From Coprobacillus sp. CAG:826 (GTDB lineage Bacteria > Bacillota_I > Bacilli_A > RFN20 > CAG-826), in contig FR897041.1 in the NCBI GenBank assembly GCA_000437235.1, positions 20,633-66,577 of the forward strand: 45,945 nt of DNA, written 5' to 3'. Each line of letters starts with the position of its first letter. The first letter of the stretch is position 1. The translations under genes and the position numbers were made by a program. This document shows positions 18,251-44,765 of the stretch, piece after piece. A model generated the notes under the pieces. That model saw nothing but the letters and a program-made list of their open reading frames with translations, did not search any database and was not told the DNA's origin.

Positions 18251-18599
18251 AAAACATATTACCATTAAAAAAGTAGGAGAGCAATTTTCTACTTTTTTAA
18301 TGCTTAGAATTAATTAAAAAAATTATATTTATAAAAAAATAGAAGAATAATGATAATATTTTGAACACACTAGATAATATGCTTAGTATTTTTGTAAATA
18401 TATTAAAAATAATGCTATTTTAAATATATTTATATGATAATATAAAAATGTAATGGGAGTAGAGTTGCAAATTCTCTTGCTAAATTTATTTCTCAAAACT
18501 TTACAAGAAGTGCATTAATAATTTAGGACACAACAGCAGCAACTTATGGAGCAAGTTATTGGTTAGGAAAAATTAATTGGGGATTCTAGGAGGAAAAAT

Positions 18600-19061
18600 A
18601 TGGAATTGTTGTATTTGGTTGGAACTATATGGTCAATTTTATTAATAACATTTGCTATATGTCTTGATACTAGAAGACCAATGTCGACAAAATTGAAATA
18701 TAAATATAGAGTTAAGGATGATTCTATTTTTAGAAAAATAATAAAATTTGAAGATAAAGAAAATTATCCTTGCAATTATTTTAAAATCGTTCCATTTTAT
18801 GTGTTTTTCTTATTAGCGATTTTAAGTTTAATCTTATTATTTGTTGATATGTTTGCTGAGGGATTAATTACAAATGTTATTTCAGGAAGAGTGTTTAAAA
18901 TCATAATAATATTCTTTTTTGGTATTAGTATATTATACTTCCTTGTTATTGTTATTTGGTGGGAAATTGTTGATTATAACGAGCTTAAATTCACCAAAGA
19001 AGAAAAGAAAAAATTGAAACAACTAAAAAAAATTAGGAAAGAAAATAAAAAAAATAAGTAA
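18600..19061 (+). CDS. Small membrane protein with Lys-rich C-terminal tail, inside a very AT-rich islet
   Basis: AGGAGG RBS and 3-4 predicted TM segments. The tail KKKLKQLKKIRKENKKNK is highly basic. Local GC is well below that of neighbouring genes. Confidence 0.45.
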   Translation: MELLYLVGTIWSILLITFAICLDTRRPMSTKLKYKYRVKDDSIFRKIIKFEDKENYPCNYFKIVPFYVFFLLAILSLILLFVDMFAEGLITNVISGRVFKIIIIFFFGISILYFLVIVIWWEIVDYNELKFTKEEKKKLKQLKKIRKENKKNK

Positions 19062-24957: not shown

Positions 24958-25965
24958 ATGAAAAAACAAATTGCCTGTTTTGGTGTTCGTGATTACGAAA
25001 TTCCTTATTTTGAAGAATTAGGAAAAAAATATGATTATGATTTAGTGTTATTTCCGCAATTTTTAAATACCGAAAACTATCAAGACGCTTATAGTTATGA
25101 GGTGGTAATGGTACGTGGAAACTGTGTAGTAAATAAAGAAGCTATGAAAGATTTATATCAACATGGCTTACGCTACTACTTAACAAGAACCGCAGGTTAT
25201 AACCACGTCGATATCGAAGCGTGTAAAGAATTGGGGATTGAAGCGGCTTATGTGCCAGGCTATTCGCCGAACGCGATTAGTGAACTTGCTTTAACTTTAG
25301 CGATGATGTTATTAAGAAATACCGCTTATATGGTGGATTATACCCATCATGGAAACTTCAAAGTCACCAATCAAATGTTCTCTCGTGAAGTAAGAGGTTG
25401 TAGAGTGGGTATCTTAGGTTGTGGGCGCATCGGTTTAACTAGCGCCCAATTATTTAAAGGATTAGGTGCCGAAGTCGTAGGTTATGATGTCTATCAATCG
25501 GATAGAGCCAAAGGAATTGTTACCTTTTTACCTCTAGACGAATTTATTAAAACCTGTGATATTATTCTTGTTCATTTAGCTTATATTAAAGGAAGTAATG
25601 ATAACTTCATTAATGAAAACTTCTTAAAGAACATGAAAAAGAACGCTATTTTGGTGAATGTTGCGCGCGGTGAAGTGATGGATACTAAAGCGGCTTTAGC
25701 CGAAGTTGAATCTGGTCATTTAGCAGGTTTAGCCATGGATGTTATTGATCATGAAAAAGCATTATTCTTCCAAAACTTTAAGGATCCTCAGCACATGGAT
25801 AACGAAGTCCATCAAAAAATCATTGATTTATATCCTCGCGTTTTAATTACCCCTCACGTGGGTTCTTCGACCGATAAAGCTTTAATTGATATGATTGAAG
25901 TATCCTTAAAGAATATGGATGAATATCTCGTATTGGGAAAATGTAAGAATTCATTAATTCGTTAA
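24958..25965 (+). CDS. D-isomer-specific 2-hydroxyacid dehydrogenase (NAD-dependent)
   Basis: Rossmann motif GILGCGRIGL with catalytic R/E/H triad context (ARGEVMD, HVGSST). Confidence 0.7.
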   Translation: MKKQIACFGVRDYEIPYFEELGKKYDYDLVLFPQFLNTENYQDAYSYEVVMVRGNCVVNKEAMKDLYQHGLRYYLTRTAGYNHVDIEACKELGIEAAYVPGYSPNAISELALTLAMMLLRNTAYMVDYTHHGNFKVTNQMFSREVRGCRVGILGCGRIGLTSAQLFKGLGAEVVGYDVYQSDRAKGIVTFLPLDEFIKTCDIILVHLAYIKGSNDNFINENFLKNMKKNAILVNVARGEVMDTKAALAEVESGHLAGLAMDVIDHEKALFFQNFKDPQHMDNEVHQKIIDLYPRVLITPHVGSSTDKALIDMIEVSLKNMDEYLVLGKCKNSLIR

Positions 25966-26125
25966 TTGAGTCAAAGTCATCTTGCAATCAGATGGCTTTT
26001 TTTCTTTACTTTAAAAAGTTGTTAATGAGAAAGCATATCATTAGACGAGTGAGGTATTTTCATAGTATATTTAACTTAGAAAAGGTAAAACTGAAAATGA
26101 ATGCCTTTTTGAAAGGAGAATGTTT

Positions 26126-27112
26126 ATGATGAAAAAAATTGCGTTCTTCGATACAAAGCCTTATGATAAAGAGGTTTTTGATGAAGAGAATACGCACTAT
26201 GAAATGGTCTATTTTGAAAGTAAATTAAATGAAAAAACCGCACGACTTGCGCAAGGATTTGATTGCGTATGTGCTTTTGTAAATGATGATATTAATCAAA
26301 AAGTGATCGATACTTTATACGAAAATGGCATTCGTCTAATTGCTTTACGAAGTGCTGGATATAATAATGTGGATTTAAAAGCCGCTCAAGATAAAATTAC
26401 AATTGTTCGCGTACCTTCTTATTCGCCGCATTCTATTGCTGAACACGCTTTTAGTTTATTACAAACTTTAAATCGTAAAATTCATCGCGCTTATATTCGT
26501 ACTCGAGACTTTAACTTTTCTTTAGTGGGAATGAATGGTATTGTTTTATATCAAAAAACCATCGGTATTGTCGGTGTTGGTGCCATTGGTAGAGCGATGA
26601 TTCAAATTGCCAAAGGTTATGGTATGCGCGTCGTATGTTTTGATCCGCATCCCGATGAATCTTTAGGTGTCGAGTTCGTGGATTTAGATACACTCTTTAA
26701 AGAAAGCGATGTCATTTCTTTACATTGCCCACTAACGAAAGCAACCTATCATATGATAAATAAAGAATCGATCGCAAAAATGAAAAAAGGCGTTTATTTT
26801 ATTAACACATCTCGTGGCGCTTTAGTGGATACCGCAAGTTTATTAGATGCCTTAAATGAAGGAAAAATTCGTGGGGCAGGTTTAGACGTTTATGAAGAAG
26901 AGGAAGACTTATTCTTTGAAGACAAATCTCTTACCATCGTAAAAGATAATATTTTATCTTTACTCATTTCTCGCCCCAACGTCATTGTTACTTCTCACCA
27001 AGCGTTTTTAACCGATGAGTCTTTAACACAAATTGCGAGAACAACCTTCGATAACTTAGATCAATACTTTGCTCATCAACCTTTAGAAAATGAAATTCGT
27101 TATCAAAAATAA
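26126..27112 (+). CDS. D-lactate dehydrogenase-like 2-hydroxyacid dehydrogenase (paralog of the gene at 24958)
   Basis: GIVGVGAIGRA, SRGALVD and HQAF motifs, with an LdhA-like N-terminus KIAFFDTKPYDKE. Start placed at the ATG 9 nt after AGGAG. Confidence 0.7.
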   Translation: MMKKIAFFDTKPYDKEVFDEENTHYEMVYFESKLNEKTARLAQGFDCVCAFVNDDINQKVIDTLYENGIRLIALRSAGYNNVDLKAAQDKITIVRVPSYSPHSIAEHAFSLLQTLNRKIHRAYIRTRDFNFSLVGMNGIVLYQKTIGIVGVGAIGRAMIQIAKGYGMRVVCFDPHPDESLGVEFVDLDTLFKESDVISLHCPLTKATYHMINKESIAKMKKGVYFINTSRGALVDTASLLDALNEGKIRGAGLDVYEEEEDLFFEDKSLTIVKDNILSLLISRPNVIVTSHQAFLTDESLTQIARTTFDNLDQYFAHQPLENEIRYQK

Positions 27113-28624: not shown

Positions 28625-28646
28625 TTTTTCATTTTAATAAAAAACA

Positions 28647-28705
28647 AAAGAAGCTAAATATGAAAAAGTTTTAACACGAAATCAATGCATTTAGCTTCTT
28701 TTTTC
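28647..28705 (+). terminator. tyrS intrinsic terminator (long-loop hairpin)
   Basis: aaagaagctaaat ... atttagcttcttt arms followed by a T-run. Confidence 0.5.
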
Positions 28706-28765: not shown

Positions 28766-28790
28766 ATAAGGTGTTAAAGGAGCCGAAAAA

Positions 28791-29081
28791 ATGGAGTTTC
28801 ATTCAAATCATGAAAAGAATCAAGAAGGTAATAAAGAAACAAAGTCTTGCGGACTTTATTTTCTTCATAATCTTTTAAATGAAATTTCTAAAAAGGAAAT
28901 ATTGTTGAAGGCTTCTTTTATCAATGATAAGAAATCTTATCTTTTATATAAGTTAAATGAAGAGAATAAAAAAGAAGCAGAACCACAACTTATTCCATAT
29001 TTTTTCATCAACAAGTTGTTGCTTCTTCGCAAGATTTTATTGGACTCGTTATTGATAGTCATTATCATCCGTATAGTTTAA
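28791..29081 (+). CDS. 96-aa ORF with strong RBS; probably the authentic N-terminal exon of the downstream giant gene, separated from it by a frameshift in a T6 tract
   Basis: AGGAG RBS 8 nt upstream. The last ~25 codons (LLLLRKILLDSLLIVIIIRIV) look like out-of-frame translation. The downstream gene's reading frame is open from 28970 and gives protein-like sequence (HQQVVASSQDFIGLVIDSHYHPYSL...). A +1 T at 29000-29005 would fuse the two ORFs. Confidence 0.4.
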   Translation: MEFHSNHEKNQEGNKETKSCGLYFLHNLLNEISKKEILLKASFINDKKSYLLYKLNEENKKEAEPQLIPYFFINKLLLLRKILLDSLLIVIIIRIV

Positions 29082-29101: not shown

Positions 29102-32100
29102 TTGTTTCAACGAGTTTTTGCTTTACCCAATTCCATAGAAAAACAATTATTATTAGGATATTGTTATGAACAAGGTGATGCAGGAGTAGTTAAAGATATT
29201 TCTAAAGCCTTTGCCTGCTTTTTAAAAGCTGCAGAGTCTAACGATGCACGTGCGCAAAATATAATTAGCTACTATTATGGAACAGGAGCAGAAGGCATCG
29301 CTATTGATTATCAAAAATCTTTCTATTATGCTTCGTTATCGGCTCAACAAAATTATGCAGTTGGTTTATTTAATTTAGGACATTGTTATGAACATGGGAC
29401 AGGAACCATTCGAAATGAAAGTAAAGCTTTTGCGCTTTATTATCAAGCGGCAATGCAAGGTTATTCTAAAGCGATGGAAAAAGTAGGCACTTATCTTTTT
29501 TATGGAACGGTGATAAAAAAAGATATCACTAGTGCTTGCTATTGGTTTCAACGCGCGGCATTAAATGGTATGGAAAATAGCTATTTATACGCTGCTTATT
29601 GTATGCTTGATAACGATATGAAAGTTCATGATATAAATACGGCCATTGAATTATTAAAACATGCTTCTTTTAAAGGCATAAAAGAGGCAGATTTAGAATT
29701 AGGTAAGATATATTATCAAAGCACCGAAATTACGCCGAATGTCTTATTAGCGTTAGACTATTTTTCTCATGCTTATCAAGAAGGTATTTTAGAAGCAGGA
29801 AAGTATATCGTTGAAATTTCGGAAAAAGATGTAAATAATGAAGAGCTTTTAAAGAAAGCCTATAACATTTTAAAAGACTTCTTAAAAAAGGAAATCGGAC
29901 AAAAAGATTTTAATGAAGAACTTTATGGCTTTGGTGCCTACCATATGGGCCTATGGCTTAAAAATGGGTGGCTAGTAAAAAAGAATGAAGAAGAGGCTTT
30001 AAGATATTTATCTTTGGCAGAACGTTTGGGCAACTATGATGCATCTTATGAAGCGAGTATTCTTTATGAAAAGAAGTTTGATTATGATGCAATGATGAAT
30101 AGCTTAAATCAAGCATTAAAAGGTTCAAAAGAAACGATTAAAAAAGCCTATTATCAATTGGGTAAACTGAATTTAGAAGGAAAAATTATAAAAAAAGATA
30201 TCGACGCAGCTTTTCGCTTTTTAGATTTATCTTTTAAAATGGGATATAGTGAAGCGGCTTATCTTTTAGCTGAAGCTTATGAAATTAGTGATGGTAAGCA
30301 TATTCCTAATTTTAAAAAAGCATTTGAAATGTATTCACATGCCGCTTATCGGTGTGATAATGCTAGAGCGTATTATAAAATGGCAGAAGCGCTTTATTAT
30401 GGCTTAGGTGTAACACCAAATGATGAACAAGCTAAAAATATGTTATTAGAAAGTCAAAAGCGTGGAGTAGAAGAAGCAGATATTCTTTTGGGAATGATGT
30501 ATTTAGAAGGAAAAGCTTATCAAAAAGATGAAGAAAAAGCTTTTTCTTGTTTTAAAAATGCTTATGAGCATCATATTCTAAGTGCTCCTTATTATTTAAG
30601 TCATTTTTATTTAAACGGAATAGTGGTTGAACAAGATATAACCTATGGCCTCGCACTTTTAAAAGAAGCAGAGGAAAATCGATTTTATCTAGCATCACAC
30701 GTTTTAGGACAAATCGATTTAGAAGGAAAGTATGTGACAAAGAATGAAGAAAGTGCCTTTAACCATTTCTTATTAGGCGCTACTTATTATGATGAAGCAT
30801 GTACTTTAGATATTGTAAAATGCTACCAGAATGGTGTTGGCGTAGAGAAAAATGAAGAGATTGCTTTTTCTTATCTTTATCAATATCATTTCCATAAAAG
30901 TCAATCTGTACTGGTAATGTATGAAATTGTTTTATGTTATTTAAAGGGTAGAGGGGTTAAAAAAGATATCGTAAAGGCAAGTTATCTTTTAAATGCAATG
31001 ATTGATAGTAAACAAAAAGAAGTGGATATATCCGAAGCGGAATTTCTTTTAGGTTACGCTTATTATACGGGGAGCATGACTTTAAGAAATCCGCCCGCTG
31101 CTTTTTATCAATTCTCTTTAGCCGCTCAAAATGAACATGTAGAAGCCATGTTTTATCTTGCAGAATGTTATGATAAAGGTACCGGTATCAGCGTAAATCA
31201 TGAAAAAGCGGTATCTTGGTATATCAAAGCGGCTGAAAAAGAACATTTAGGCGCAATGTATGAATTAGGTAATCATTATTATGATGGAATCGGCATTGAA
31301 CAAGACTATCAAAAGGCATTTTCTTATTATAAAATGGCAGCAGAAAGTGGTTATTTAAGTGCACAAGTGAGTTTAGCAGGGTGCTACGCTAACGGGGTAG
31401 GTACGATGCAAAGTTATGCTTTAGCGGCCAAATATTATGCGTTAGCTTCCCAAAAGAATCACGCTTTAGCAGAATTCCATTTAGCGGACTTGTACGAAAA
31501 TGGCTTTGGGGTAACGTTATCCTATGACTTAGCCATTGAATATTATAAAAGAGCGATAGAACATGGTTATTCTTTAGCGAAAGAATCCTTAGAAAGAGTA
31601 GAAAAGAAATTAGAATTAAAACGCTTGCAAGAAGTTGGTGTTGAACCAAGCCACGTTTTCATTTCTTGGAATCATTATTCGGAAGAACTTTCGATTCAAA
31701 TTTCTGAAATTTTAAAACAAGGCAATTTAAAAGTATGGCATAGTAATGCAAGTTGCGAAGGATTTATTAGTGAGACGTGTTTACTTGCGATAAAAAACGC
31801 AAAAACTTTCTTAGTGTTATTAAGTTTAAAAGCTATTAAAAGTGCCTATGTGCAAATGGAAGTTCAAGCGATTTATGATCGGGTAAAAAATGGAGAAATC
31901 GATATTTCTTGTATTAAAGCAATGTATGATGGTCCAGAAAATGAAATCCGTCAAGCTTTAAGTGAACTACCAAAAGAGCATCCAATGCGTATCTTTATCG
32001 ACTTTGATTTATCACCGTTATATGTGACAGAACCGCAATATATGATTGATAATATCATCAATTCGTTAACCACGGGCGCTTTTAAAACGTATCGTAATGT

Positions 32101-33745
32101 TAGACATAGAAAAACAGCCATGTTTAGTATGTTTATTTTAAACACGTTTAATTTTGATCGTTATGCGAATATGGTAGATTTAACGAGCAATATTGAAAAA
32201 GGTTACATTTCTAGAAAATTGGCGCTCTACACGAAAAAAGATGAATCTGTTTTTTATAGTGAAGAAGACTTATTGAAAAATGAGCTTTCTTTAATTGTGG
32301 CACCGGGTGGAAGAGGAAAATCCGTTTATCTACAAAATTTAGAACATCGCTTCTTTAGTCAAGATAACGCTTCTACGATTTTCTTTCGTTTTCCCTTAAC
32401 GCAGTTAAAAAATTATGTGGCGAAGCTTTCAAAAGAAGTAGATGCTGAAGATTTTATTGCTTTCTTAAAAGAAGAAGTCTTTCAAAAAGAATTAGATGAA
32501 GTGGAAAAGAATATTCCTTTCCGTAATGAAAAATTTATTCAACTTTTCCTACAAGAAAATAAACAAATTTATTTCTTATTAGACGCTATAGATGAATTAG
32601 GAAATGACCGGAAAAAATGGCTTCAAATTTTTGAAAAAATGTGGAGTGATTTTGTTTTAAAATATAACAAAAACAAATCCACGCATTTCATTTTTACTTC
32701 TCGTATTGTTGAAAAAATTCATATCGCTGAACTTTCTTCTTTAATGATATTTACCTTACCTTCCTTTAATGAAAAAGAGCAGAGAGAATTATTTGTTTCT
32801 ATTATGAATTTATTCAATGCATCGCAATTAAGAGATATGGCAAATCACCAAGAAGAAGTCACCTTATTTAGTGAGGAAGAAGATTATCCGCTTTTTCAAA
32901 AGGAAGTTGCTGAGCTCCATATTCCGATTACCTCCAATCCTTTGATTTTATGTAATTTCTTAATTCTATATTTTATGAATGCATTAGAAAATCGACCAAT
33001 GCCTAAAACTGAATATGAAATCATGATGCAATCCATTCATCTTTTAATTGATCAATTAGAAGATGAAAAGCGAATTGATTTAGATTTAAACTTAGTTTCA
33101 GCGTCTTTTTTAAATCAACATTTACGTAATATTTTAGCTTATCTTTATTTTGAAATTTTGGCTTTTGATTCAAGACCGATTGAAGATATTATTTTAGAGT
33201 ACCTTCAAGATAATGAAAAAGAAGAAGAAATTCAAAAGTTAACGATGCTAGAAAGAAAACGTTTAGCTCTTGCTTTAAAACAACATTTTATTTCTCGTAA
33301 TTTTGCAGGAGAAGGAAATATTGTTCACGCTTTGTTCGCTACTTATTTTGCTTCCGAATATTGTTATCAAGATTTAATTCAAATTACGGGCAAGGGCAAA
33401 TTAGCGCACCTTACTTTTAAAGATGAAAAAGCGAAAGAACGACTTCTTTCTTATCAAGAACAGTATTTCTCCTTGGGAGAAAACTGGATTGACGTTTTAA
33501 ATCATTTGATTTCTAAAATGCTTTATCAACTTTCTTTGTTACCGCATGAAGAAAATCTTTCGAAAGATAATTTTAATTTCTTACAAGAAGTCTTTGAAAT
33601 TCTTTATGTTCGTAATATAAATGAGAACATGAAAAAGAGTTATCGTGATATAAGAAAAATGGCGAAAGAGAAACGCTGCTACTTTGCTTCAGATGTCCTG
33701 CAACTTTTGACATTAGAAAAATTTTCTAGCGAAGAAAATAATTGA
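29102..33745 (+). CDS. Giant Sel1-like-repeat / TIR / NACHT-type STAND NTPase protein (candidate NLR-like defence protein); annotated start is a TTG without RBS
   Basis: Residues 1-830 carry about 20 Sel1-like repeats. Residues ~848-975 are TIR-like (VFISW, LVLLS, SAYVQME with the Glu at the catalytic position). Walker A APGGRGKS is at aa 1066-1074, Walker B FLLDAIDE at 1158-1165, FTSR at 1198-1201 and SNPLILC at 1278-1284, which together are NACHT hallmarks. The C-terminal ~260 aa are helical. Confidence 0.8.
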   Translation: MFQRVFALPNSIEKQLLLGYCYEQGDAGVVKDISKAFACFLKAAESNDARAQNIISYYYGTGAEGIAIDYQKSFYYASLSAQQNYAVGLFNLGHCYEHGTGTIRNESKAFALYYQAAMQGYSKAMEKVGTYLFYGTVIKKDITSACYWFQRAALNGMENSYLYAAYCMLDNDMKVHDINTAIELLKHASFKGIKEADLELGKIYYQSTEITPNVLLALDYFSHAYQEGILEAGKYIVEISEKDVNNEELLKKAYNILKDFLKKEIGQKDFNEELYGFGAYHMGLWLKNGWLVKKNEEEALRYLSLAERLGNYDASYEASILYEKKFDYDAMMNSLNQALKGSKETIKKAYYQLGKLNLEGKIIKKDIDAAFRFLDLSFKMGYSEAAYLLAEAYEISDGKHIPNFKKAFEMYSHAAYRCDNARAYYKMAEALYYGLGVTPNDEQAKNMLLESQKRGVEEADILLGMMYLEGKAYQKDEEKAFSCFKNAYEHHILSAPYYLSHFYLNGIVVEQDITYGLALLKEAEENRFYLASHVLGQIDLEGKYVTKNEESAFNHFLLGATYYDEACTLDIVKCYQNGVGVEKNEEIAFSYLYQYHFHKSQSVLVMYEIVLCYLKGRGVKKDIVKASYLLNAMIDSKQKEVDISEAEFLLGYAYYTGSMTLRNPPAAFYQFSLAAQNEHVEAMFYLAECYDKGTGISVNHEKAVSWYIKAAEKEHLGAMYELGNHYYDGIGIEQDYQKAFSYYKMAAESGYLSAQVSLAGCYANGVGTMQSYALAAKYYALASQKNHALAEFHLADLYENGFGVTLSYDLAIEYYKRAIEHGYSLAKESLERVEKKLELKRLQEVGVEPSHVFISWNHYSEELSIQISEILKQGNLKVWHSNASCEGFISETCLLAIKNAKTFLVLLSLKAIKSAYVQMEVQAIYDRVKNGEIDISCIKAMYDGPENEIRQALSELPKEHPMRIFIDFDLSPLYVTEPQYMIDNIINSLTTGAFKTYRNVRHRKTAMFSMFILNTFNFDRYANMVDLTSNIEKGYISRKLALYTKKDESVFYSEEDLLKNELSLIVAPGGRGKSVYLQNLEHRFFSQDNASTIFFRFPLTQLKNYVAKLSKEVDAEDFIAFLKEEVFQKELDEVEKNIPFRNEKFIQLFLQENKQIYFLLDAIDELGNDRKKWLQIFEKMWSDFVLKYNKNKSTHFIFTSRIVEKIHIAELSSLMIFTLPSFNEKEQRELFVSIMNLFNASQLRDMANHQEEVTLFSEEEDYPLFQKEVAELHIPITSNPLILCNFLILYFMNALENRPMPKTEYEIMMQSIHLLIDQLEDEKRIDLDLNLVSASFLNQHLRNILAYLYFEILAFDSRPIEDIILEYLQDNEKEEEIQKLTMLERKRLALALKQHFISRNFAGEGNIVHALFATYFASEYCYQDLIQITGKGKLAHLTFKDEKAKERLLSYQEQYFSLGENWIDVLNHLISKMLYQLSLLPHEENLSKDNFNFLQEVFEILYVRNINENMKKSYRDIRKMAKEKRCYFASDVLQLLTLEKFSSEENN

Positions 33746-33818: not shown

Positions 33819-34397
33819 ATGAAATCGTTAAAAATTATTCAAGTCCTATGCAAAATAGGTCAAATTCTAAGTAAAATTGCTTTTATTTTATGTATTGTAG
33901 GTGCAAGTTTGAGTTTGCTAGGAATTCTATCGTTAGCTTGTGGGATTGAGACCATTGAAATTAATGGTGTGACAATTGGAAGCATGATTCAAAATGACTC
34001 AGGAATGAGTATGGGAACCATGTATACAACTTTAGCTGTCGGTATCGTTATGATGGCAGGAGAAATCGCGATTGCTAAATTTGCAGAACTTTATTTCAAA
34101 CATGAATTAATTGCTGGTACGCCTTTAACTTTAGAAGGAGCAAAAGAAATGCGCCGTTTAGGCATTTTAAAGATTGCAGTTTCTTTAGGAACATTTATAT
34201 TAGCCGCTATTGTACAAGCAATTTTAAAAGCAACATTAACTGATGTCGTTGAAGTAGATTTAGATCATTCAGGCGCTATCGTTATGGGCGTTATGTATTT
34301 AATTCTTTCTTTAGTGCTTCAATACGCTAGTGAAGAATTAAAGAATAAAGAAGAAAAAATCGAAATTTCAAGTCATCAAGAAAATGAAAAGGAGTGA
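33819..34397 (+). CDS. Small 4-TM membrane protein (possibly DUF2975-like), immediately downstream of the TIR-NACHT gene
   Basis: 192 aa with four hydrophobic helices and an acidic C-terminal tail. The RBS is purine-rich but weak (AAAGGGGAAAAGAAA, no AGGAG core) and is preceded by an 8-bp inverted repeat. Confidence 0.5.
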   Translation: MKSLKIIQVLCKIGQILSKIAFILCIVGASLSLLGILSLACGIETIEINGVTIGSMIQNDSGMSMGTMYTTLAVGIVMMAGEIAIAKFAELYFKHELIAGTPLTLEGAKEMRRLGILKIAVSLGTFILAAIVQAILKATLTDVVEVDLDHSGAIVMGVMYLILSLVLQYASEELKNKEEKIEISSHQENEKE

Positions 34398-34412
34398 AAA
34401 CACTCCTTTTTT
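34386..34412. terminator. Bidirectional terminator between convergent genes
   Basis: aaaaggagtg aaaa cactcctttt hairpin overlapping both stop codons. Confidence 0.55.
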
Positions 34413-35691: not shown

Positions 35692-35990
35692 AAACTCACC
35701 CTACTTATTGTATAAGAAAATAAAAAAAATAACTAGCGGTAAAACGTTAATTTAGAAAATGAAAAATATAGAAAATTTATCATTAGATGATTGAATGGGC
35801 AAAGTAATAATTAATGCGAACTATTGCTTTAAATGATATTTATGTTATTATTAAAATATATAAGACATATTGTGACTTTAAATAGTTAAAAAAATAAAAT
35901 AGTTAGAAGAGAAAAGTTTTTGTAATTTTAAATTTCTAGTAGGTGTTAGTGTAATATTGGCACATATTATATGAATGAGGGGGAAGAACA

Positions 35991-38263: not shown

Positions 38264-38617
38264 ATGGAAAGCAAAATACGTATCACACCCTTTGAAGATG
38301 GTATCATCATTGCGATTTCTGGTGATTTAGATTCATTGAGGGTTATGTCTTATCGCAGTTTAATCCAAAGTGAAATGGAACAATATGGGGCTAAGTTTCT
38401 CTTATGGGATTTTTCAAATTTAAGTTTTTTAGATTCTTCAGGTATTGGTCTTATTTTAGGAAGATATAACGAAATTCGTCGAAAAGGTGGCTTTTGTGGC
38501 GTGATGGGGCTCACGACCTACACAAGAAAACTCATTGAGATGACGGGACTATTTTCCATTATGGAAGAATATCGAAGCGTAGTGGCGTTTAAAAAGAAAG
38601 TGAGGATTAATGCATGA
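38264..38617 (+). CDS. spoIIAA: Anti-sigma-F factor antagonist (STAS domain)
   Basis: FLDSSGIGLILGRYNEIRRKGG is co-linear with B. subtilis SpoIIAA. AAGGAGGGG RBS. Confidence 0.85.
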   Translation: MESKIRITPFEDGIIIAISGDLDSLRVMSYRSLIQSEMEQYGAKFLLWDFSNLSFLDSSGIGLILGRYNEIRRKGGFCGVMGLTTYTRKLIEMTGLFSIMEEYRSVVAFKKKVRINA

Positions 38618-39060
38618 ACACAATGGAAGTACGTTTTAGTGCCACGTTGATGAATGAGTCTTTTGCGCGTATGGTTGTGACTTCTTTTATTGCCCCTTTA
38701 AATCCAACGATGGATGAAATAAGTGAAGTGAAAACTATCGTTTCTGAAGCGGTGAGTAACGCGATTATTCATGGTTATCGTTTAGATGCAAGTAAAGAGG
38801 TGGTGATGAAAGCTACCATCGATAAAGATTCGTTAACACTAATCATCAGCGATTATGGTATTGGTATCGATAATATCGAATTAGCGTTAAAGCCAAGTTT
38901 TACCACACGTCCTGATTTAGAAAGAGCGGGTATGGGATTAACAATTATTCAATCATTAAGCAATGAATTTGCCATTCGTTCAGTGATTGGCATGGGAACA
39001 AAAATCACAATTAAAAAAGTTTTTTCAAATGCTTTAACTTACGCTTATGGCGACAAGTAA
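38614..39060 (+). CDS. spoIIAB: Anti-sigma-F factor (serine kinase, GHKL ATPase)
   Basis: NESFARMVVTSFIAPLNPTMDEISEVKTIVSEAVSNAIIHGY is nearly co-linear with B. subtilis SpoIIAB. The ATGA overlap with spoIIAA is present. Confidence 0.9.
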   Translation: MNTMEVRFSATLMNESFARMVVTSFIAPLNPTMDEISEVKTIVSEAVSNAIIHGYRLDASKEVVMKATIDKDSLTLIISDYGIGIDNIELALKPSFTTRPDLERAGMGLTIIQSLSNEFAIRSVIGMGTKITIKKVFSNALTYAYGDK

Positions 39061-39760
39061 TGTGGATTACGACTTATTAAAAAGAGCGAAAGATGGCGAT
39101 AAGCAAGCGCTAGATGAAGCTTGTAAAATCCATACGCCCTTAGTGATTTCCTTATGTTCTCGTTATCAAAGCGGTATGGTCGATAAAGAAGATTTAGTGA
39201 GTGTAGGTATGTTAGGCTTATTAAAAGCCATTCAACAATTTGATGAGAATTTTGGTGTACAATTTTCTACGTATGCTGTGCCATTAATCTTAGGAGAAAT
39301 CAAACGCTTTTTCCGTGATGATGGCGTCATTAAAGTATCTCGACAATATAAAGAACTCTATTTAAAAATCCAAAAGAAAGAAAAAGAGTTAGAAATGAAG
39401 TTAGAAAGAGCAGTGACCATTGATGATTTAGCGAAAGAACTTGATGTACCTAGAGAAGATATTCATATGGCGATTGAATCTCATTACTATCCAACTTCAT
39501 TATCGACTCCAATGGATGATGATCATTTTGTCTTTGAAGATACTTTAGGAGAAAATGATGTTATAGAAGAACTAGATAAAATGGATTTATTAGAAGCTTT
39601 AAAAAAACTAGATCCAAAAGAACAGTTATTAATTAAAATGCGATATTTTGATGAAATGAAACAGCAAGAATGTGCGGAGCGTTTCTTTGTATCGCAAGTC
39701 CAAATTTCTAGAATGGAAAAAAAGATTTTAGAAAAATTAAAGCGAATGTTGGTCTCATGA
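39047..39760 (+). CDS. sigF: Sporulation sigma factor sigma-F
   Basis: Sigma-70 regions 2-4 (FSTYAVPLILGEIKRFFRDDG ...). The position after spoIIAB is diagnostic. Confidence 0.85.
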   Translation: MATSNVDYDLLKRAKDGDKQALDEACKIHTPLVISLCSRYQSGMVDKEDLVSVGMLGLLKAIQQFDENFGVQFSTYAVPLILGEIKRFFRDDGVIKVSRQYKELYLKIQKKEKELEMKLERAVTIDDLAKELDVPREDIHMAIESHYYPTSLSTPMDDDHFVFEDTLGENDVIEELDKMDLLEALKKLDPKEQLLIKMRYFDEMKQQECAERFFVSQVQISRMEKKILEKLKRMLVS

Positions 39761-39788
39761 ATGAAATCACCTCTTTTTTAACACAATA
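39759..39788 (+). promoter_or_regulatory. Putative sigma-G-type promoter of the spoVA operon
   Basis: GAATG, 18-nt spacer, CACAATA. Confidence 0.3.
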
Positions 39789-39804
39789 AAAATGAGGTGG
39801 TACG

Positions 39805-40257
39805 ATGAAAGACGAACGTTTTCAAGAAATTGTAAAAGAAAACCAAGTAAAAGAGAAGAAGGGAAAACATCTTTTATTCGCTTTCTTGGTTGGTGGATGT
39901 ATGGGCTTATTTGCGCATTTTATTTATGATATGAGTTTTCGTTATTTAGGGGCAACGAAAGAAAATGCCGGCCTTATTTCTACCAGTGTAATTATTATTC
40001 TTACCACGATTTTAACGATGACGGGAACTTATAAAAAATTAGCACGAAAATTTGGAGCCGGTTTATTCATTCCGACTTCTGGATTCGCTAACTCGATGGC
40101 ATCATCTGCGATTGAATCAAAATTTGAAGGTCCAATCTATGGCTTAGGTTCACGTATGTTTTATTTAGCGGGTAGTGTGATTACCTATGGCATTTTTAGT
40201 GCGTTTATTTACGCAGTGATTCGCTTCTTATTAAGTCTTATAGGAGTGAGCCTATGA
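39805..40257 (+). CDS. spoVAC: Stage V sporulation protein AC
   Basis: LLFAFLVGGCMGLFAHFIYD ... SGFANSMASSAIE matches SpoVAC. Confidence 0.8.
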   Translation: MKDERFQEIVKENQVKEKKGKHLLFAFLVGGCMGLFAHFIYDMSFRYLGATKENAGLISTSVIIILTTILTMTGTYKKLARKFGAGLFIPTSGFANSMASSAIESKFEGPIYGLGSRMFYLAGSVITYGIFSAFIYAVIRFLLSLIGVSL

Positions 40258-41249
40258 GTTTCCATATGAATTTTCATCATGTTTTCATCAAATCTTTTTC
40301 TTCGATTGTCGGAAAAAAAGAAAAAGAGGGACCTTATGGCGATTATTTTGATGAAAGCGTAAAAGATGATTATGTCGGAGAAAAAACATTTGAAGAAGGA
40401 GAAATTCATTTAGCTAGAAGAGCGATTGAACTAGTGTTACTTAAAGGCAAAACCGAAATTGGCGAAATTCCTCTTGTTTTTGGTGGGGATTTAAGTAATC
40501 AAATTGCCATTACTTCTAGAGTGATGAAAGATTTATCAAGCGCTGCGATTGGGGTATATAGTGCATGTGCAACCTTACCTTTAGCGTTAGGTTTAGCAGC
40601 GACGTATGTCGATAATAAGTATATTCTGCATGGTTTAGTGTTTACAAGTTCTTCTAAAAGTGTAGCGGAACGACAATTCCGTTATCCTAATGACTATGGA
40701 ATCCAAAAGAAAGATTCAAGTACGATTACAGTAACGGGCAGTGCAAGTTTTATCGTTTCTAGAGATCCATCTCCGATTCAAATTACCGGACTGACCTATG
40801 GAAAAGTGTATGATCCAAATTTAGCAAATCTAAATGATATGGGGAGTCCTATGGCTTATGCTGCATATCATACCATTAGGGATCATTTAAAGAGTCAAAA
40901 TGAAACAATGGAGGATTATGACGCAATTATTACGGGTGACTTATCTTTGATAGGTACTAAGGTTTTAAAAGCTTGTTTTAAAGAAGATGGGATTGATTTA
41001 AAAAATCATTTAGATGCGGGAAACTTAATTTTTCACCGCGAAAAAGAAAAAGTATATGCCGGTGGAAGTGGGCCTGGTTGTATTGCGGTTTTTTTAGCGG
41101 GTTATGTTTTAAAAGAAATGTTAAAAGGTACATTGAAGCGCGTTTTAATTGTCGCAACAGGTGCTTTATTTTCGCCCACCCTTTCTCAACAAAAACATTC
41201 GATTCCTGTTATCGCTCACGCGATTACCTTAGAAAGAAAAGAGGCATAG
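40254..41249 (+). CDS. spoVAD: Stage V sporulation protein AD
   Basis: 331 aa with a thiolase/KAS-like fold typical of SpoVAD. The start overlaps the spoVAC stop. Confidence 0.8.
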   Translation: MSFHMNFHHVFIKSFSSIVGKKEKEGPYGDYFDESVKDDYVGEKTFEEGEIHLARRAIELVLLKGKTEIGEIPLVFGGDLSNQIAITSRVMKDLSSAAIGVYSACATLPLALGLAATYVDNKYILHGLVFTSSSKSVAERQFRYPNDYGIQKKDSSTITVTGSASFIVSRDPSPIQITGLTYGKVYDPNLANLNDMGSPMAYAAYHTIRDHLKSQNETMEDYDAIITGDLSLIGTKVLKACFKEDGIDLKNHLDAGNLIFHREKEKVYAGGSGPGCIAVFLAGYVLKEMLKGTLKRVLIVATGALFSPTLSQQKHSIPVIAHAITLERKEA

Positions 41250-41251
41250 TT

Positions 41252-41608
41252 ATGACGTATTTATACGCATTTTTGTTTGCTGGCCTTTTAAGCTTTTTAG
41301 GACAACTACTCTATGAATATACGAAATTAACCCCCGGACATATTACGAGCATGTTCGTTGTTGTTGGGGTTTTATTAGAATCTTTTGGCATCTATGATTT
41401 CTTTTTATCTTATTGTGGAGGAGGCGCAATGACGCCGATTACCAATTTTGGTCACGTTTTAGCGCATTCCGCTATAGAAGGCGCTAAAGAAGAAGGCTTC
41501 ATGGGTATTTTAAAAGGTTTATTAAAAAACGCATCTTATGTTTTATCTTTAGTAACGGTAACCGCTACAGTAGCGGCGCTTTTAACGCGCCCTAAAGGAG
41601 ATGCCTAA
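41252..41608 (+). CDS. spoVAEb: Stage V sporulation protein AE (SpoVAEb-type)
   Basis: MTYLYAFLFAGLLSFLGQLLYEYTKLTPGHITSMFVVVGVLLESFGIYD aligns with B. subtilis SpoVAEb. The true start is the ATG at 41252 after an AGAGG RBS; the track ORF at 41078 is an out-of-context extension. Confidence 0.7.
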   Translation: MTYLYAFLFAGLLSFLGQLLYEYTKLTPGHITSMFVVVGVLLESFGIYDFFLSYCGGGAMTPITNFGHVLAHSAIEGAKEEGFMGILKGLLKNASYVLSLVTVTATVAALLTRPKGDA

Positions 41609-41609
41609 T

Positions 41610-42980
41610 ATGCGTTACGATGAGAAATTAGATTTATATTTAATGACGCAAACGCATCTATATGAAAACTTTGATGTCGTGCGTAGAGAAGTGGGGCTTG
41701 GTTTAAAAAAGGGTGTTTTGTATTATTTATCTAGCTTAGTGAATGAAGTGGCTATTACGAATTTATTAGAAGGTATCAAAGTAGCGTGGTCAGCTTCTAC
41801 AATGGAAAAAACGCTTTTTAATGGTTCGGTTTTAAAAAAAAACAATCAAGAAGAAATTCTAGATGATTTGTTTTCTGGAAATGCCATTTTATTGTTGGAA
41901 AATCTAAAATCAGCCATGGTAATTGATGTTCGTTCTTATCCCTCTAGAGCGATTAGTGAGCCGACAAGCGAACAAACGATTCGTGGCTCGAGAGATGGTT
42001 TTACCGAATCCATTAATACGAACGTTGGATTGATTCGTAGAAGAATTAAAGATACCCATTTAATGATTGAAACTTTTAACGTTTCGAAAAAAAGTGCCAT
42101 TTCTGTTGCGGTTTGTTATCTATCTGATCAAGCAGATTTAGGTATTGTTGAGGACTTAAAAAAGAAAATTCAAGAAATCGATGTGAATTCCTTAGTGATG
42201 TCTGATCGCGCTTTAGAAGAAATTTTATTTAAACAACGATTTTCGCCGTTTCCTTTAGTTCGCTATACGGAACGTCCAGATGTAGCAAGCATCAATTTAA
42301 TGAATGGAAAGATTCTTTTAATCTGCGATACTTCAGCGAGTGTCATTATTACGCCTACGACGTTTATTGATCATACCAAGCACGTTGAAGAATTTCGTCA
42401 ATCTCCCTTAATTGGTAGCTTTACAAGACTATTACGAAGTATTGCTGTTCTTTTATCGTTTTTACTTCTTCCGCTTTGGCTAGCGTTAGTTAAAACGGAT
42501 GGTTTTCATAATGGCTTAGAAATTGAAGTCACCTTACAGAATAGCCATCTTTTAGTGGTACAAATCTTTGTTGCGGAATTGATCTTTGAACTTTTGCGGA
42601 TTGCTTCCATTCATACGCCAACTCAATTAACCAGTGCCGTGGGTTTAATTGCCGCGATAGTATTATCCCAAGTTTCTTTAGACTTAGGATTATTTCTTCC
42701 TGAGATTATTTTAATGTGCGCAATTTCCGCTATTTGTGGATTTGCTACACCGAGTTATGAATTATCTATGGCCAATAAAGTTATGAAATTAATTCTTATT
42801 TTATTTGTCGCGGTGGGTGGAAAAGTAGGCTTTTTAATCGGGATAACCCTTTTATACATTTATCTATCTTGTTTAAAAACATGGGATATGCCGTATTTAT
42901 ACCCCTTCTGTCCTTTAGATACAAAAAAAGCACTCGATCTATTTTCTAGATCCAGTGCAAAGAAACGTAAGAATTTATAA
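41610..42980 (+). CDS. spoVAF: Stage V sporulation protein AF (GerA family spore germination protein)
   Basis: GerA-type N-terminal soluble domain plus a 5-TM C-terminus. Its position after spoVAE is as in Bacilli. The start is at either 41601 or 41610. Confidence 0.65.
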   Translation: MRYDEKLDLYLMTQTHLYENFDVVRREVGLGLKKGVLYYLSSLVNEVAITNLLEGIKVAWSASTMEKTLFNGSVLKKNNQEEILDDLFSGNAILLLENLKSAMVIDVRSYPSRAISEPTSEQTIRGSRDGFTESINTNVGLIRRRIKDTHLMIETFNVSKKSAISVAVCYLSDQADLGIVEDLKKKIQEIDVNSLVMSDRALEEILFKQRFSPFPLVRYTERPDVASINLMNGKILLICDTSASVIITPTTFIDHTKHVEEFRQSPLIGSFTRLLRSIAVLLSFLLLPLWLALVKTDGFHNGLEIEVTLQNSHLLVVQIFVAELIFELLRIASIHTPTQLTSAVGLIAAIVLSQVSLDLGLFLPEIILMCAISAICGFATPSYELSMANKVMKLILILFVAVGGKVGFLIGITLLYIYLSCLKTWDMPYLYPFCPLDTKKALDLFSRSSAKKRKNL

Positions 42981-44234
42981 TTTCTTGAGTCTTCTAAGGT
43001 CTTTAGAACGACCTTGTTTTTTAAGCCTACGATAATTTTCATTTAAAGCGCGTTCATAACTTGAATGGTCGCTTGGTTCATAAAATTGCATGTTTTTAAT
43101 GAGTTCAGGAAGATATTGAATCTTTTCCCATATATCGGGACGGTCATAAGGATATTTATCTTCTTCTTGGACGTTAACAGGAGTAAGTTTTAAATAATCC
43201 ATGACATCTAAAGGTGATGAGGTAGCAACATCCATTGCTTTATGGATGGCGTTACAAGCCACTTTTGATTTTGGAGAGAGTGCTAAATCACATACCGTAA
43301 ATCCTAGAGGAATGACGGCTTCAGGGAGGCCAACTTTTCTTGCGCTTTCTAAAGCGGTCGCACAGCGGGTGACGGCTTGAGGATTTGCTAAACCGATATC
43401 TTCATAAGCAGTAACGAGTAATCGTCTTTCAATGCTTTCTAAATCACCAGCGGCACATAAACGGGCTAAATAATATAACGCCGCATCGACATCACTTCCA
43501 CGAATCGATTTTTGTAAAGCAGAGACGGCATCATAGTGACCATTCTCATCTTGATCCATTAAATAATTAGGGATTTTAGTAATGGCATCAATGTCACTTT
43601 TTTCAATGTGCATTTTTTTAGAGCCTAATGTGGCAACTTCCACTAAATTCATAGCAAACCGCATATCACCAGAGGCTAAGCGAGCAATCGTAGCCACGGC
43701 TTCATCACTAAAGGTATACATATTGTTTAAACCATTAGGGAGTTCAATCACTCGATGAATACCTTCTATAATTTCTTTTTGAGTTAAAGGTTTAACTTCT
43801 AAAAGATGACAGCGGCTTCGAATAGCGGGATTAATGGCAATATAAGGGTTTGCGGTAGTGGCGCCAATTAAATAAATTGTTCCCGATTCAATAAAAGGAA
43901 GCAATAAATCCTGTTTATCTTTACTTAAACGGTGAACTTCATCCATGATGATAATTGGATGCGGAAATAAACGCGATTCTTCAATAGCGGCTTCCATTTC
44001 TTTTTTGTTGCTCGTAACAGCGTTTAGCTTAATTAAATGAGCGTCCATGGAACGCGAAAAAGCTTCTGCTAAAGTGGTTTTTCCTGATCCAGGTGGACCA
44101 TAAAAAATCATAGAGACTAGAGTATTTGATTCCATTAAATGACGTAAAAAGCCATCTTCACCCACTAAGTGCTTTTGGCCAATAATGTCATCTAAAGTAT
44201 GGGGACGTACGCGGTACGCTAAAGGTGCATTCAT
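42975..44234 (-). CDS. rarA: Replication-associated recombination protein A (AAA+ ATPase RarA/MgsA)
   Basis: Walker A GPPGSGKTTLA and an N-terminus LAYRVRPHTLDDIIGQKHL. The start is probably MNAPL, which follows GGAAGTGA. Confidence 0.8.
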   Translation of the reverse strand: MNAPLAYRVRPHTLDDIIGQKHLVGEDGFLRHLMESNTLVSMIFYGPPGSGKTTLAEAFSRSMDAHLIKLNAVTSNKKEMEAAIEESRLFPHPIIIMDEVHRLSKDKQDLLLPFIESGTIYLIGATTANPYIAINPAIRSRCHLLEVKPLTQKEIIEGIHRVIELPNGLNNMYTFSDEAVATIARLASGDMRFAMNLVEVATLGSKKMHIEKSDIDAITKIPNYLMDQDENGHYDAVSALQKSIRGSDVDAALYYLARLCAAGDLESIERRLLVTAYEDIGLANPQAVTRCATALESARKVGLPEAVIPLGFTVCDLALSPKSKVACNAIHKAMDVATSSPLDVMDYLKLTPVNVQEEDKYPYDRPDIWEKIQYLPELIKNMQFYEPSDHSSYERALNENYRRLKKQGRSKDLRRLKKL

Positions 44235-44303
44235 TTTCATCACTTCCATTAATTAGTATATCAATTTTCTTTTAATTTCTCTATAATAATTATGGTGATG
44301 AAA

Positions 44304-44765
44304 ATGCGCGTTGTTTTACAAATTGTTCAAAATGCTCATGTCGATATCGAAGGAAAGACCGTAGGGATCATAAAAAAAGGTTATCTTCTTTTGGTCGGAT
44401 TTCAAGAAGGCGATGATGAAAGCATTTTAAAAGAAATGCTGAATAAAATCATCGGTCTTCGTATTTTTGCGGATGAACAAGGAAAAACCAATTTATCTTT
44501 AGATGATGTTCATGGAGAAATCTTATCCGTTTCGCAGTTTACTTTATATGCTGATGTTAGAAAAGGAAGAAGACCCTCTTTTGTTAACGCCTTAGCACCA
44601 CAAAAAGCGACCGTTCTATATGATCGTTGGCTTAGTTTATTAAGAGAAATATATCCAAATGCCCAAAGCGGTGTTTTTGGAGCGGATATGAAAGTGTCCT
44701 TAGTGAATGATGGACCTTTTACGCTAATTTTAGATAGCGATGAATTGCGGAGGAAAAATGCATGA
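44304..44765 (+). CDS. dtd: D-aminoacyl-tRNA deacylase
   Basis: MRVVLQIVQNAHVDIEG...LLLVGF and a C-terminal SQFTL/GPFT motif. GGTGA RBS. The -10 TATAAT is at 44282-44287. Confidence 0.75.
   Translation: MRVVLQIVQNAHVDIEGKTVGIIKKGYLLLVGFQEGDDESILKEMLNKIIGLRIFADEQGKTNLSLDDVHGEILSVSQFTLYADVRKGRRPSFVNALAPQKATVLYDRWLSLLREIYPNAQSGVFGADMKVSLVNDGPFTLILDSDELRRKNA

Follow-up and report, generated by a model that had tools for sequence, protein, structure and literature searches.

What does a very large Sel1-repeat protein do when it also carries a TIR domain and a nucleotide-binding module, and is encoded among housekeeping genes? The question is raised by a 45,945-nt stretch of Coprobacillus sp. CAG:826 (assembly GCA_000437235.1, contig FR897041.1, positions 20,633 to 66,577; hereafter the window), in which a 1547-aa open reading frame (ORF) is deposited as "sel1 repeat protein [Coprobacillus sp. 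CAG:826]" (GenBank CDD92124.1), an annotation that mentions neither TIR nor NTPase. A first-pass annotation made from the DNA had proposed a candidate new defence module resembling the nucleotide-binding leucine-rich-repeat (NLR) receptors. The likeness to NLR-type STAND (signal-transducing ATPases that have numerous domains) proteins was borne out, and the family is absent from PADLOC and was not met with in the NACHT, STAND or TIR surveys that we searched; what points to a defence role is homology to TIR–NACHT and NLR systems. On balance, we lean towards reading the gene product as a single-gene, cytoplasmic, NLR-like TIR NADase immune sensor of gut Coprobacillus.

Domain content and order of the protein

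The N-terminal half consists of Sel1 repeats. Pfam Sel1 (PF08238) scored 305.8 bits against a gathering threshold of 30.7, in 15 stretches, and a repeat profile built from the protein itself gave ~18 Sel1-like units (18-20) within residues 17-821 of the 1547-aa ORF; "about 20" had been counted by eye over residues 1-830. AlphaFold2 (AF2) modelled the array as a paired-helix solenoid with a predicted local distance difference test score (pLDDT) of about 90.

The TIR domain that had been read at residues ~848-975, with a Glu at the catalytic position, was recovered by profile search. Pfam TIR_2 (PF13676) passed narrowly in the window protein (31.6 bits, with the gathering threshold at 28; residues 852-937) and was found in 39 of 40 family members, with a best E of 1e-13; the fold is flavodoxin-like, as in other TIR domains. 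When the family profile was compared with TIR structures in the PDB, it matched Cat1 (2e-6), RUN1 (4e-4) and AbTIR (7e-3). E920, at the Glu position of helix alpha-C, was invariant across alignments of 15 and 24 sequences, as was the Ser-Trp of FISW, and HMMER aligned the invariant Glu with that of RUN1 (WCLDEL), Cat1 (WCWDEL), PdTIR (WPQKEL) and 7uxr. The domain is thus a candidate NADase of the catalytic type, with putative NAD+ cleavage.

The NTPase was harder to assign. In the window protein alone, Pfam NACHT (PF05729) reached 18.1 bits over residues 1061-1232, below its gathering threshold of 26.7, and NPHP3_N likewise fell short (21.9 against 24.8 bits). Because the single protein falls below the Pfam cut-off, its NACHT identity needs family-level and structural evidence, and this evidence, drawn from profiles and models, argues strongly for it. 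NACHT was detected at E <= 1e-3 in 29 of the 40 members (best E = 2e-10) and NPHP3_N in 35. NACHT motifs were reportedly defined by Koonin and Aravind in 2000 and by Leipe and colleagues in 2004 as GxxGxGK[ST], hhhhD[GAS]hDE with extra acidic residues, and TSR; Walker A, Walker B and the sensor-1 Arg are all present in the window protein, and every motif named in the first-pass annotation (VFISW, LVLLS, E920, Walker A with K1073, Walker B, FIFTSR and TSNPLILCNFL) lies where it was placed. The 15- and 24-sequence module alignments have a mean column identity of only 22-36%, and within them the G-G-K of Walker A (K1073), D1161, D1164, N1279-P1280 and H1409 are invariant, while E1165 and R1201 of sensor-1 are conserved in at least 90% of sequences.

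Structural comparison gave the same assignment. The family profile matched NOD2 in the PDB at 1.2e-3, with its motifs aligned to GEAGSGKS, FDGFDE and LTSR of that protein. An AF2 model of residues 840-1547 (708 aa) had a pLDDT of 81.2 and a predicted template modelling score (pTM) of 0.72, and its top Foldseek matches were NOD2, RPP1, NLRC4 and NLRP3, over about 600 aligned columns; a fold search against BFVD returned generic AAA+ matches only. The model has the succession of nucleotide-binding domain (NBD), helical domain 1 (HD1), winged-helix domain (WHD) and helical domain 2 (HD2), with the ADP-contacting His in the WHD. The Foldseek matches to NLR structures indicate that the region after the NBD is HD1-WHD-HD2 and not a separate repeat sensor: the protein ends in the NACHT helical domains, with no C-terminal repeats.

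To define the family, residues 840-1547 were used in an exhaustive HMMER search of 1.84 billion representative sequences, which gave 68 matches at E <= 1e-3, 54 of them at E <= 1e-10. About 43 matches carry the whole TIR–NTPase–helical module at the C-terminal end, with 150-1250 aa N-terminal of it, and Sel1 was found in 37 of the 40 full-length members. A word-indexed search, capped at 8000 candidates, listed distant SIR2/LRR–NACHT proteins for the module profile and nothing for the C-terminal 708 aa. The order Sel1–TIR–NACHT, which the first-pass annotation had flagged as atypical, is conserved in these ~43 cluster representatives from gut Bacilli, named in their source records as Coprobacillus, Erysipelotrichaceae, Anaeroplasma and unclassified Bacilli metagenome-assembled genomes (MAGs). 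Eleven weaker matches are built differently, with TIR at residue ~10 and a C-terminal extension of 500-1650 aa. The seven of these that were scanned are TIR–NACHT–LRR proteins with leucine-rich repeats (LRR) of the BspA-type LRR_5 family and NACHT scores of 22-55 bits, six above 26.7 or close to 40-55. This outgroup suggests that the family has a TIR–NACHT core related to canonical bacterial NLR-like proteins, but has N-terminal Sel1 repeats and no C-terminal LRR.

The protein does not follow the canonical tripartite plan of an effector at the extreme N-terminus and a C-terminal sensor, since its TIR is preceded by ~950 aa of N-terminal extension and Sel1 array. TIR before NACHT is itself canonical, and the atypical features are only two: the repeats stand before the effector, and there is no C-terminal repeat sensor. 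We found no Sel1–TIR–NACHT order described in NACHT, STAND or TIR surveys, a literature that we covered incompletely; Sel1 goes unmentioned in the accessible portions of a 2026 STAND survey (10.64898/2026.01.04.697583) and of the TIR surveys. As a separate observation, BspA-type LRR_5 proteins, with the same repeat type that forms the C-terminal sensor in the outgroup of canonical order, lie beside or near two Sel1–TIR–NACHT members (L006:6293-8695 and L014:2110-4947). Such proteins are common in gut Firmicutes, and their presence here may therefore be coincidence.

From the conserved residues and the likeness to NLRs, we infer a defence role, an NADase output, sensing through Sel1 and activation by oligomerisation. 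In the resting state, the NACHT module would be closed and ADP-bound, with His1409 of the WHD on the nucleotide as in NOD2 and NLRC4. Once the Sel1 solenoid bound its ligand, either a guarded protein of the host or a foreign (phage) one, nucleotide exchange at K1073/D1161 and NACHT oligomerisation would follow, and in the oligomer the neighbouring TIR domains would come together to form composite active sites around E920. The clustered TIRs could hydrolyse NAD+ or make a signal derived from ADP-ribose (ADPR), and the infected cell would thereby be stopped (abortive infection). The Sel1 array is the candidate sensor in this scheme; that it serves as the pathogen- or guardee-binding sensor of a working 'permuted' NLR, ordered sensor–effector–NOD (nucleotide-binding oligomerisation domain), is a proposal we advance tentatively and with more doubt than confidence.

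Gene start and reading frame

The 1547-aa ORF exists as first described, but its TTG start is a frameshift artefact. The gene begins at ATG 28791 and encodes 1651 aa at full length. Two same-species contigs (L001 and L002) have seven T residues at a homopolymer where the window has six, and carry unbroken ORFs (1651 and 1649 aa, respectively). At 99% identity to the window protein, P0001 (1651 aa) is its closest match in the database. All three begin with MEFHSNHEKNQ and continue in frame into the Sel1 array. In the window, the first ~71 codons of a separate 96-aa ORF encode the start of this N-terminal extension, and its remaining codons, beyond the frameshift, are out of frame. Conservation of the extension (~104 aa) in P0121 and P0122, two orthologues, is weak, with the motif V.S.QDFI..VI...NP[YF].

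Whether the break is real in this genome bears on the window copy. A true frameshift would make the gene a pseudogene, or else translation would restart at TTG 29102 and give a protein truncated at its N-terminus; in both cases the copy would be impaired or non-functional. The T6 run, the deposition of the truncated product as CDD92124.1 and the lack of an evident ribosome-binding site (RBS) before TTG 29102 are all consistent with this. However, the 90% cluster comprises 193 members, and those that were listed are all 1651 aa long apart from one fragment of 256 aa and the window's own 1547-aa entry, which argues that the truncation is a one-off, by assembly error or strain mutation. For the remaining 4.6 kb the ORF is also unbroken, at 99% identity to P0001, so that any inactivation would be very recent. 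Early metagenome assemblies, the CAG series among them, often contain errors in homopolymer length. We therefore consider a real frameshift rather unlikely; unless the break is an assembly error, the window copy, if expressed, would yield a form without the first ~104 residues. Recurrent phase variation at the T-run was rejected, because the 1547-aa length occurs only in the window's entry among the listed cluster members.

Upstream, a terminator-like hairpin with a U-run follows tyrS (Table 1), which suggests that the STAND gene is a transcription unit of its own, apart from tyrS. The consensus terminator scan did not call this hairpin because of its long loop, and no sigma-70 promoter was called upstream of ATG 28791. 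No transmembrane (TM) or signal-peptide-like segment was found in the protein, which is predicted to be cytoplasmic and to act as a single-gene unit.

Table 1. Features of the Sel1–TIR–NACHT gene and its flanks (window coordinates; residue numbers of the 1547-aa ORF unless a model is named)
Feature	Coordinates	Strand	Details
Terminator-like hairpin and U-run after tyrS	28646..28702	+	RNA fold -14.2 kcal/mol, z = -3.09 vs shuffles
True 5' end of gene	28791..29081	+	96-aa ORF; ATG 28791; RBS AAAGGAG 28776-28782
Homopolymer T6 (T7 in relatives)	29000..29005	+	1-nt deletion splits the 1651-aa gene into 96-aa and 1547-aa ORFs
ORF of the first-pass annotation	29102..33745	+	1547 aa, TTG start; product identical to CDD92124.1
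Sel1-like repeat array	29150..31564	+	~18 units, residues 17-821; predicted continuous alpha-solenoid
Connecting helix, last Sel1 repeat to TIR beta-A	31565..31648	+	AF2 1200-aa model: helix 479-498 directly before strand 505-508
TIR domain	31649..32011	+	residues ~850-970; VFISW 852 (beta-A), LVLLS 904 (beta-C), E920 (nt 31859-31861, alpha-C)
Linker / pre-NBD region	32012..32266	+	long helix, small strands, one low-confidence loop (AF2); 708-aa construct: H139-167, E168-203, pLDDT below 50 at residues 174-187
NACHT nucleotide-binding domain	32267..32758	+	Walker A, Walker B and sensor-1 motifs
Walker A APGGRGKS	32300-32323	+	residues 1067-1074; K1073
Walker B FLLDAIDELG	32573-32602	+	residues 1158-1167; D1161/D1164/E1165
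Sensor-1 FIFTSR	32687-32704	+	residues 1196-1201; R1201
HD1-WHD-HD2-like helical remainder	32759..33742	+	NP motif N1279-P1280 and His1409
NP motif N1279-P1280	32936-32941	+	within TSNPLILCNFL (from 1277)
His1409	33326-33328	+	invariant, in H..F..YFA[AS]
192-aa membrane protein gene	33819-34397	+	74 nt downstream; about 5 TM segments, no Pfam family
Bidirectional hairpin	34387-34410		common to the 192-aa protein gene and convergent rsmF

Divergence, genomic context and alternative readings

Rates of change differ among the domains. Pairwise against the L002 copy (95% identical; synonymous divergence, dS, about 0.3-0.5), the ratio of nonsynonymous to synonymous divergence (dN/dS) was 0.115 in the Sel1 array, 0.064 in NACHT and 0.090 in the C-terminus, compared to 0.003 in tyrS and 0.108 in rsmF; dN peaked in the C-terminus (0.045) and the Sel1 array (0.041). 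With dN/dS at about 0.1 in every domain, purifying selection acts on the gene, though less tightly than on core enzymes. For the Sel1 array, positive selection was rejected, since its pairwise dN/dS of 0.09-0.13, from two close sequences, is purifying. Over longer distances, identity of P0001 to P0121 and P0122 falls from 65% and 57% in TIR through 57% and 49% in the NBD and 50% and 44% in HD1-WHD to 29% and 26% in the Sel1 array, 33% and 24% in the last 120 aa, and 24% and 21% in the N-terminal extension. The Sel1 array is thus the fastest-diverging large part of the protein, and P0122 lacks 225 of its residues; the regional identities mark the array and the extreme C-terminus as variable surfaces. 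Separately, over the TIR and linker (~31643-32266, ORF residues 848-1055), dS between the window and L002 drops to about 0.04-0.06, from 0.3-0.5 in the flanks, which suggests a recent recombination patch or constraint at the nucleotide level.

The variable C-terminus opens an alternative within the same NLR-like TIR–NACHT defence protein: the trigger could be read by short, fast-diverging C-terminal helices of the SNaCT-like (bNACHT01-type) kind, and the Sel1 array would then serve for scaffolding or localisation, or as a platform for a host chaperone or guardee. The last ~120 residues diverge about as fast as the Sel1 array by both identity and dN, and bNACHT25, in the accessible part of its description, senses phage via host DnaJ (PMC12169576). 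However, in structural alignment the greater part of the C-terminal region is taken up by the HD1-WHD-HD2 match to NOD2 and NLRP3, which leaves little room for a separate domain, and a very large array of variable length, present in 37 of the 40 members, fits ligand binding better than a scaffold. We regard this alternative as unlikely.

The genomic setting bears on whether the protein acts in defence at all. The neighbours are as the first-pass annotation gave them, with tyrS upstream, and a small membrane protein gene and rsmF downstream, but its claims of a single-gene insertion and of a context typical of accessory defence loci were not supported. In three same-species contigs (L001, L002 and L012) the gene also lies between tyrS and rsmF. 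In an uncultured Coprobacillus MAG of a different species (L003; tyrS 78% identical), an orthologue (P0122, 1435 aa, module 43% identical to that of the window) directly follows tyrS, with different genes downstream. With an orthologue at the same place in another species and the gene conserved at this locus in the relatives compared, all of them carriers of the family, a single-gene insertion is unsupported and the idea of an accessory insertion is weakened. The same MAG (CAZOUY01) holds a second, divergent paralogue (L004) of 1606 aa, upstream of gmk and priA, with a module ~25% identical to that of the window.

Other members have mostly housekeeping neighbours: genes for asparaginase, thioredoxin, DHDPS, QueA and MiaA around P0037, and gdpP and the L9 ribosomal protein gene near L008. 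A PADLOC and Pfam scan of 89 neighbouring proteins from 8 loci yielded one clear defence system, at L007:12452-17541, where a family member is followed by an XRE-type helix-turn-helix (HTH) protein, an ImmA/IrrE-type M78 peptidase and type II CRISPR-Cas (Cas9, Cas1). Matches to SspA/DndA and PD-T4-6, which were not assigned to single proteins, probably reflect generic enzyme families. A defence-island context is therefore unsupported as a family trait. Searches of viral contigs (IMG/VR), phages (INPHARED) and plasmids (PLSDB) gave no relatives, which speaks against a mobile-element origin.

These data lend some support to a protein that is not antiviral, namely a lineage-conserved cytoplasmic signalling STAND that would couple an endogenous cue, read through Sel1, to NAD+ turnover or ADPR-type signalling in dormancy, sporulation-linked cell fate, stress or inter-bacterial conflict. 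Its conserved position after tyrS in two species, the housekeeping neighbours, the uniform purifying selection without domain-wide positive selection and the missing phage, plasmid and viral-contig relatives all fit such a role, and the host forms spores, with spoIIAA-AB-sigF and spoVA genes nearby. Yet the characterised bacterial TIR–STAND/NACHT proteins that we found in the literature are all antiphage, and the Sel1 array, whose divergence far outpaces that of the core and whose repeat number varies, behaves as is typical of a receptor with a changing ligand. The two divergent paralogues in one MAG and the member beside CRISPR-Cas9 likewise argue against it, and we judge it less probable still than C-terminal sensing.

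Interaction with hosts is known both for proteins with Sel1 repeats and for bacterial TIR proteins, and the family is confined to gut-associated Bacilli. A secreted effector acting on eukaryotic (gut-epithelial) Toll-like receptor or NAD+ signalling, like Tcp-type TIR proteins and Sel1-repeat virulence factors, is nonetheless very improbable: the protein lacks a signal peptide and TM segments, no secretion-system genes lie nearby, and its 1651 aa with a NACHT ATPase switch that is both intact and invariant make it intracellular oligomerisation machinery.

Several observations nevertheless weigh against an immune sensor that reads its trigger through Sel1 and signals through TIR. In the TIR region, the W of an S-x-W-C-x-x-E motif is replaced by Y, and the sequence reads VWHSN where the family consensus is VWESD. 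PADLOC returned no whole-protein match, and for the window protein only mad8, at E = 0.0024. The placement of the Sel1 solenoid relative to NACHT in AF2 is without confidence: a larger model of the last 13 Sel1 repeats plus TIR–NACHT (1200 aa) had a pLDDT of 82.4 and a pTM of 0.53. Since adding the repeats lowered pTM from 0.72, a fixed autoinhibitory Sel1–NACHT docking is unsupported computationally. The fast divergence of the last ~120 residues means that the sensor could lie there instead, the synteny after tyrS across species is core-gene-like, one of about nine loci (L007) adjoins a defence system, and the window copy is frameshifted.

No conserved partner gene was found beside family members. 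The 192-aa membrane protein downstream is on the same strand, with no terminator predicted between the two genes; its conservation (88.5% identity, dN/dS 0.12) is limited to loci of the same species. It was rejected as a partner, because the genes at that place in other members are unrelated ones, such as gmk or those for an ABC ATPase or an HTH protein. About 2 kb downstream of the STAND gene lies a strain-variable spot: the 99%-identical strain L001 has an extra 489-aa ORF with no Pfam family (17310-18779) between rsmF and a 171-aa ORF, where the window has ~217 bp (35744-35961). Upstream of tyrS, the window carries two tandem D-2-hydroxyacid dehydrogenase paralogues (24958-27112), ~30% identical to each other; the pair is conserved in L001 and L002, and in L003 the equivalent position yielded just one of the two, the paralogue nearer to tyrS. 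Further downstream (38264-45877) are spoIIAA-spoIIAB-sigF, spoVAC/D/E and a GerA-type germination receptor, identified by Pfam on the matching L001 genes, which indicate that the host is a spore-forming member of the Bacilli.

Were the NLR-like immune sensor reading correct in its permuted form, NACHT activation and TIR clustering would be possible without a sensor C-terminal to the NTPase. In the usual description, NLR/STAND receptors, whether from animals, plants, fungi or bacteria, run from effector through NTPase to sensor, and current models explain autoinhibition by a C-terminal sensor that folds back onto the NTPase. With a canonical TIR–NACHT core and the repeat array before the effector, the family would offer a natural test of position dependence in NLR sensing and autoinhibition. 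It would also be a new single-gene antiphage family of gut Erysipelotrichales-like Bacilli, which are poorly covered in defence catalogues; in these small genomes, with defence genes outside obvious islands, island-based discovery pipelines would miss it. Before a phenotype is demonstrated, its practical value stays modest.

Comparison with known systems

As a whole, the protein matched none of the PADLOC-defined systems considered (TIR-NLR, Avs, Thoeris ThsB and PDC-S66), and its family has no model in PADLOC. Matches of family members were limited to the TIR region, with SAVED_TIR, ThsB and PDC-S66 (profile positions 119-245), and TIR-NLR was matched by 1 of 40 members (7.6e-5). The TIR NADases SARM1, AbTIR and Cat1 are the comparison for the window TIR, whose own NADase activity is putative.

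The TIR–NACHT–LRR_5 proteins of the outgroup (P0163, P0171, P0175, P0177, P0181, P0182 and P0185) share a homologous core, with phmmer E values of 7e-16 to 6e-5, 25-31% identity over TIR and NBD, the same TIR_2 and NACHT Pfam families, and TIR directly N-terminal to the NTPase. They differ in having TIR at residue ~10 and a C-terminal LRR sensor of 500-1200 aa, whereas the window family has its 150-1250 aa Sel1-bearing N-terminus. Among eukaryotic receptors, NOD2, NLRP3 and NLRC4 were the best structural matches to the NTPase module, over 380-440 residues of NBD-HD1-WHD-HD2, and NOD2 was also the best NACHT-side sequence-profile match in the PDB; animal NLRs are nonetheless only 12-16% identical, with CARD or PYD effectors and C-terminal LRR sensors. 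In the plant TIR-NLRs RPP1 and RUN1, the NTPase is instead NB-ARC and the sensor a C-terminal LRR.

Bacterial NACHT proteins (bNACHT), some of which have TIR effectors, are antiphage and are arranged as N-terminal effector, central NACHT and C-terminal sensor, according to the accessible part of the survey by Kibby et al. (10.1101/2022.07.19.500537). By the same account, they share with the window protein the NACHT domain, Walker A, a Walker B of the form D-[GAS]-x-D-E, the sensor-1 Arg and the WHD His, and some clades likewise have a short C-terminal extension only. Clade 14, compared here by its description, is such a short-extension clade and has no effector fusions, unlike the TIR-bearing window protein. 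An N-terminal repeat array is not among the architectures listed in the available portion of that survey, and 'Sel1' does not occur in its supplementary architecture table.

Sel1 repeats are found with NAD+-consuming effectors elsewhere. Avs5 (SIR2–nSTAND3–TPR/Sel1, TPR being the tetratricopeptide repeat) follows the same logic of an NAD+-consuming effector, a STAND NTPase and a TPR/Sel1 sensor in one polypeptide, and there the repeats are the C-terminal sensor of the NADase–STAND protein (PMC12931631). E. coli TIR-II, for which antiphage activity has been demonstrated, combines TIR with TPR and sometimes an ATPase, with TIR N-terminal and the repeats after it (PMC11350192), and three database proteins (P0002, P0017 and P0021) join TIR and Sel1 in that order with no NACHT. 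Measured against these systems, the window protein likely represents a small, undescribed family of immune sensors, whose TIR–NACHT, NLR-like kind is known and whose N-terminal Sel1 array sets it apart.

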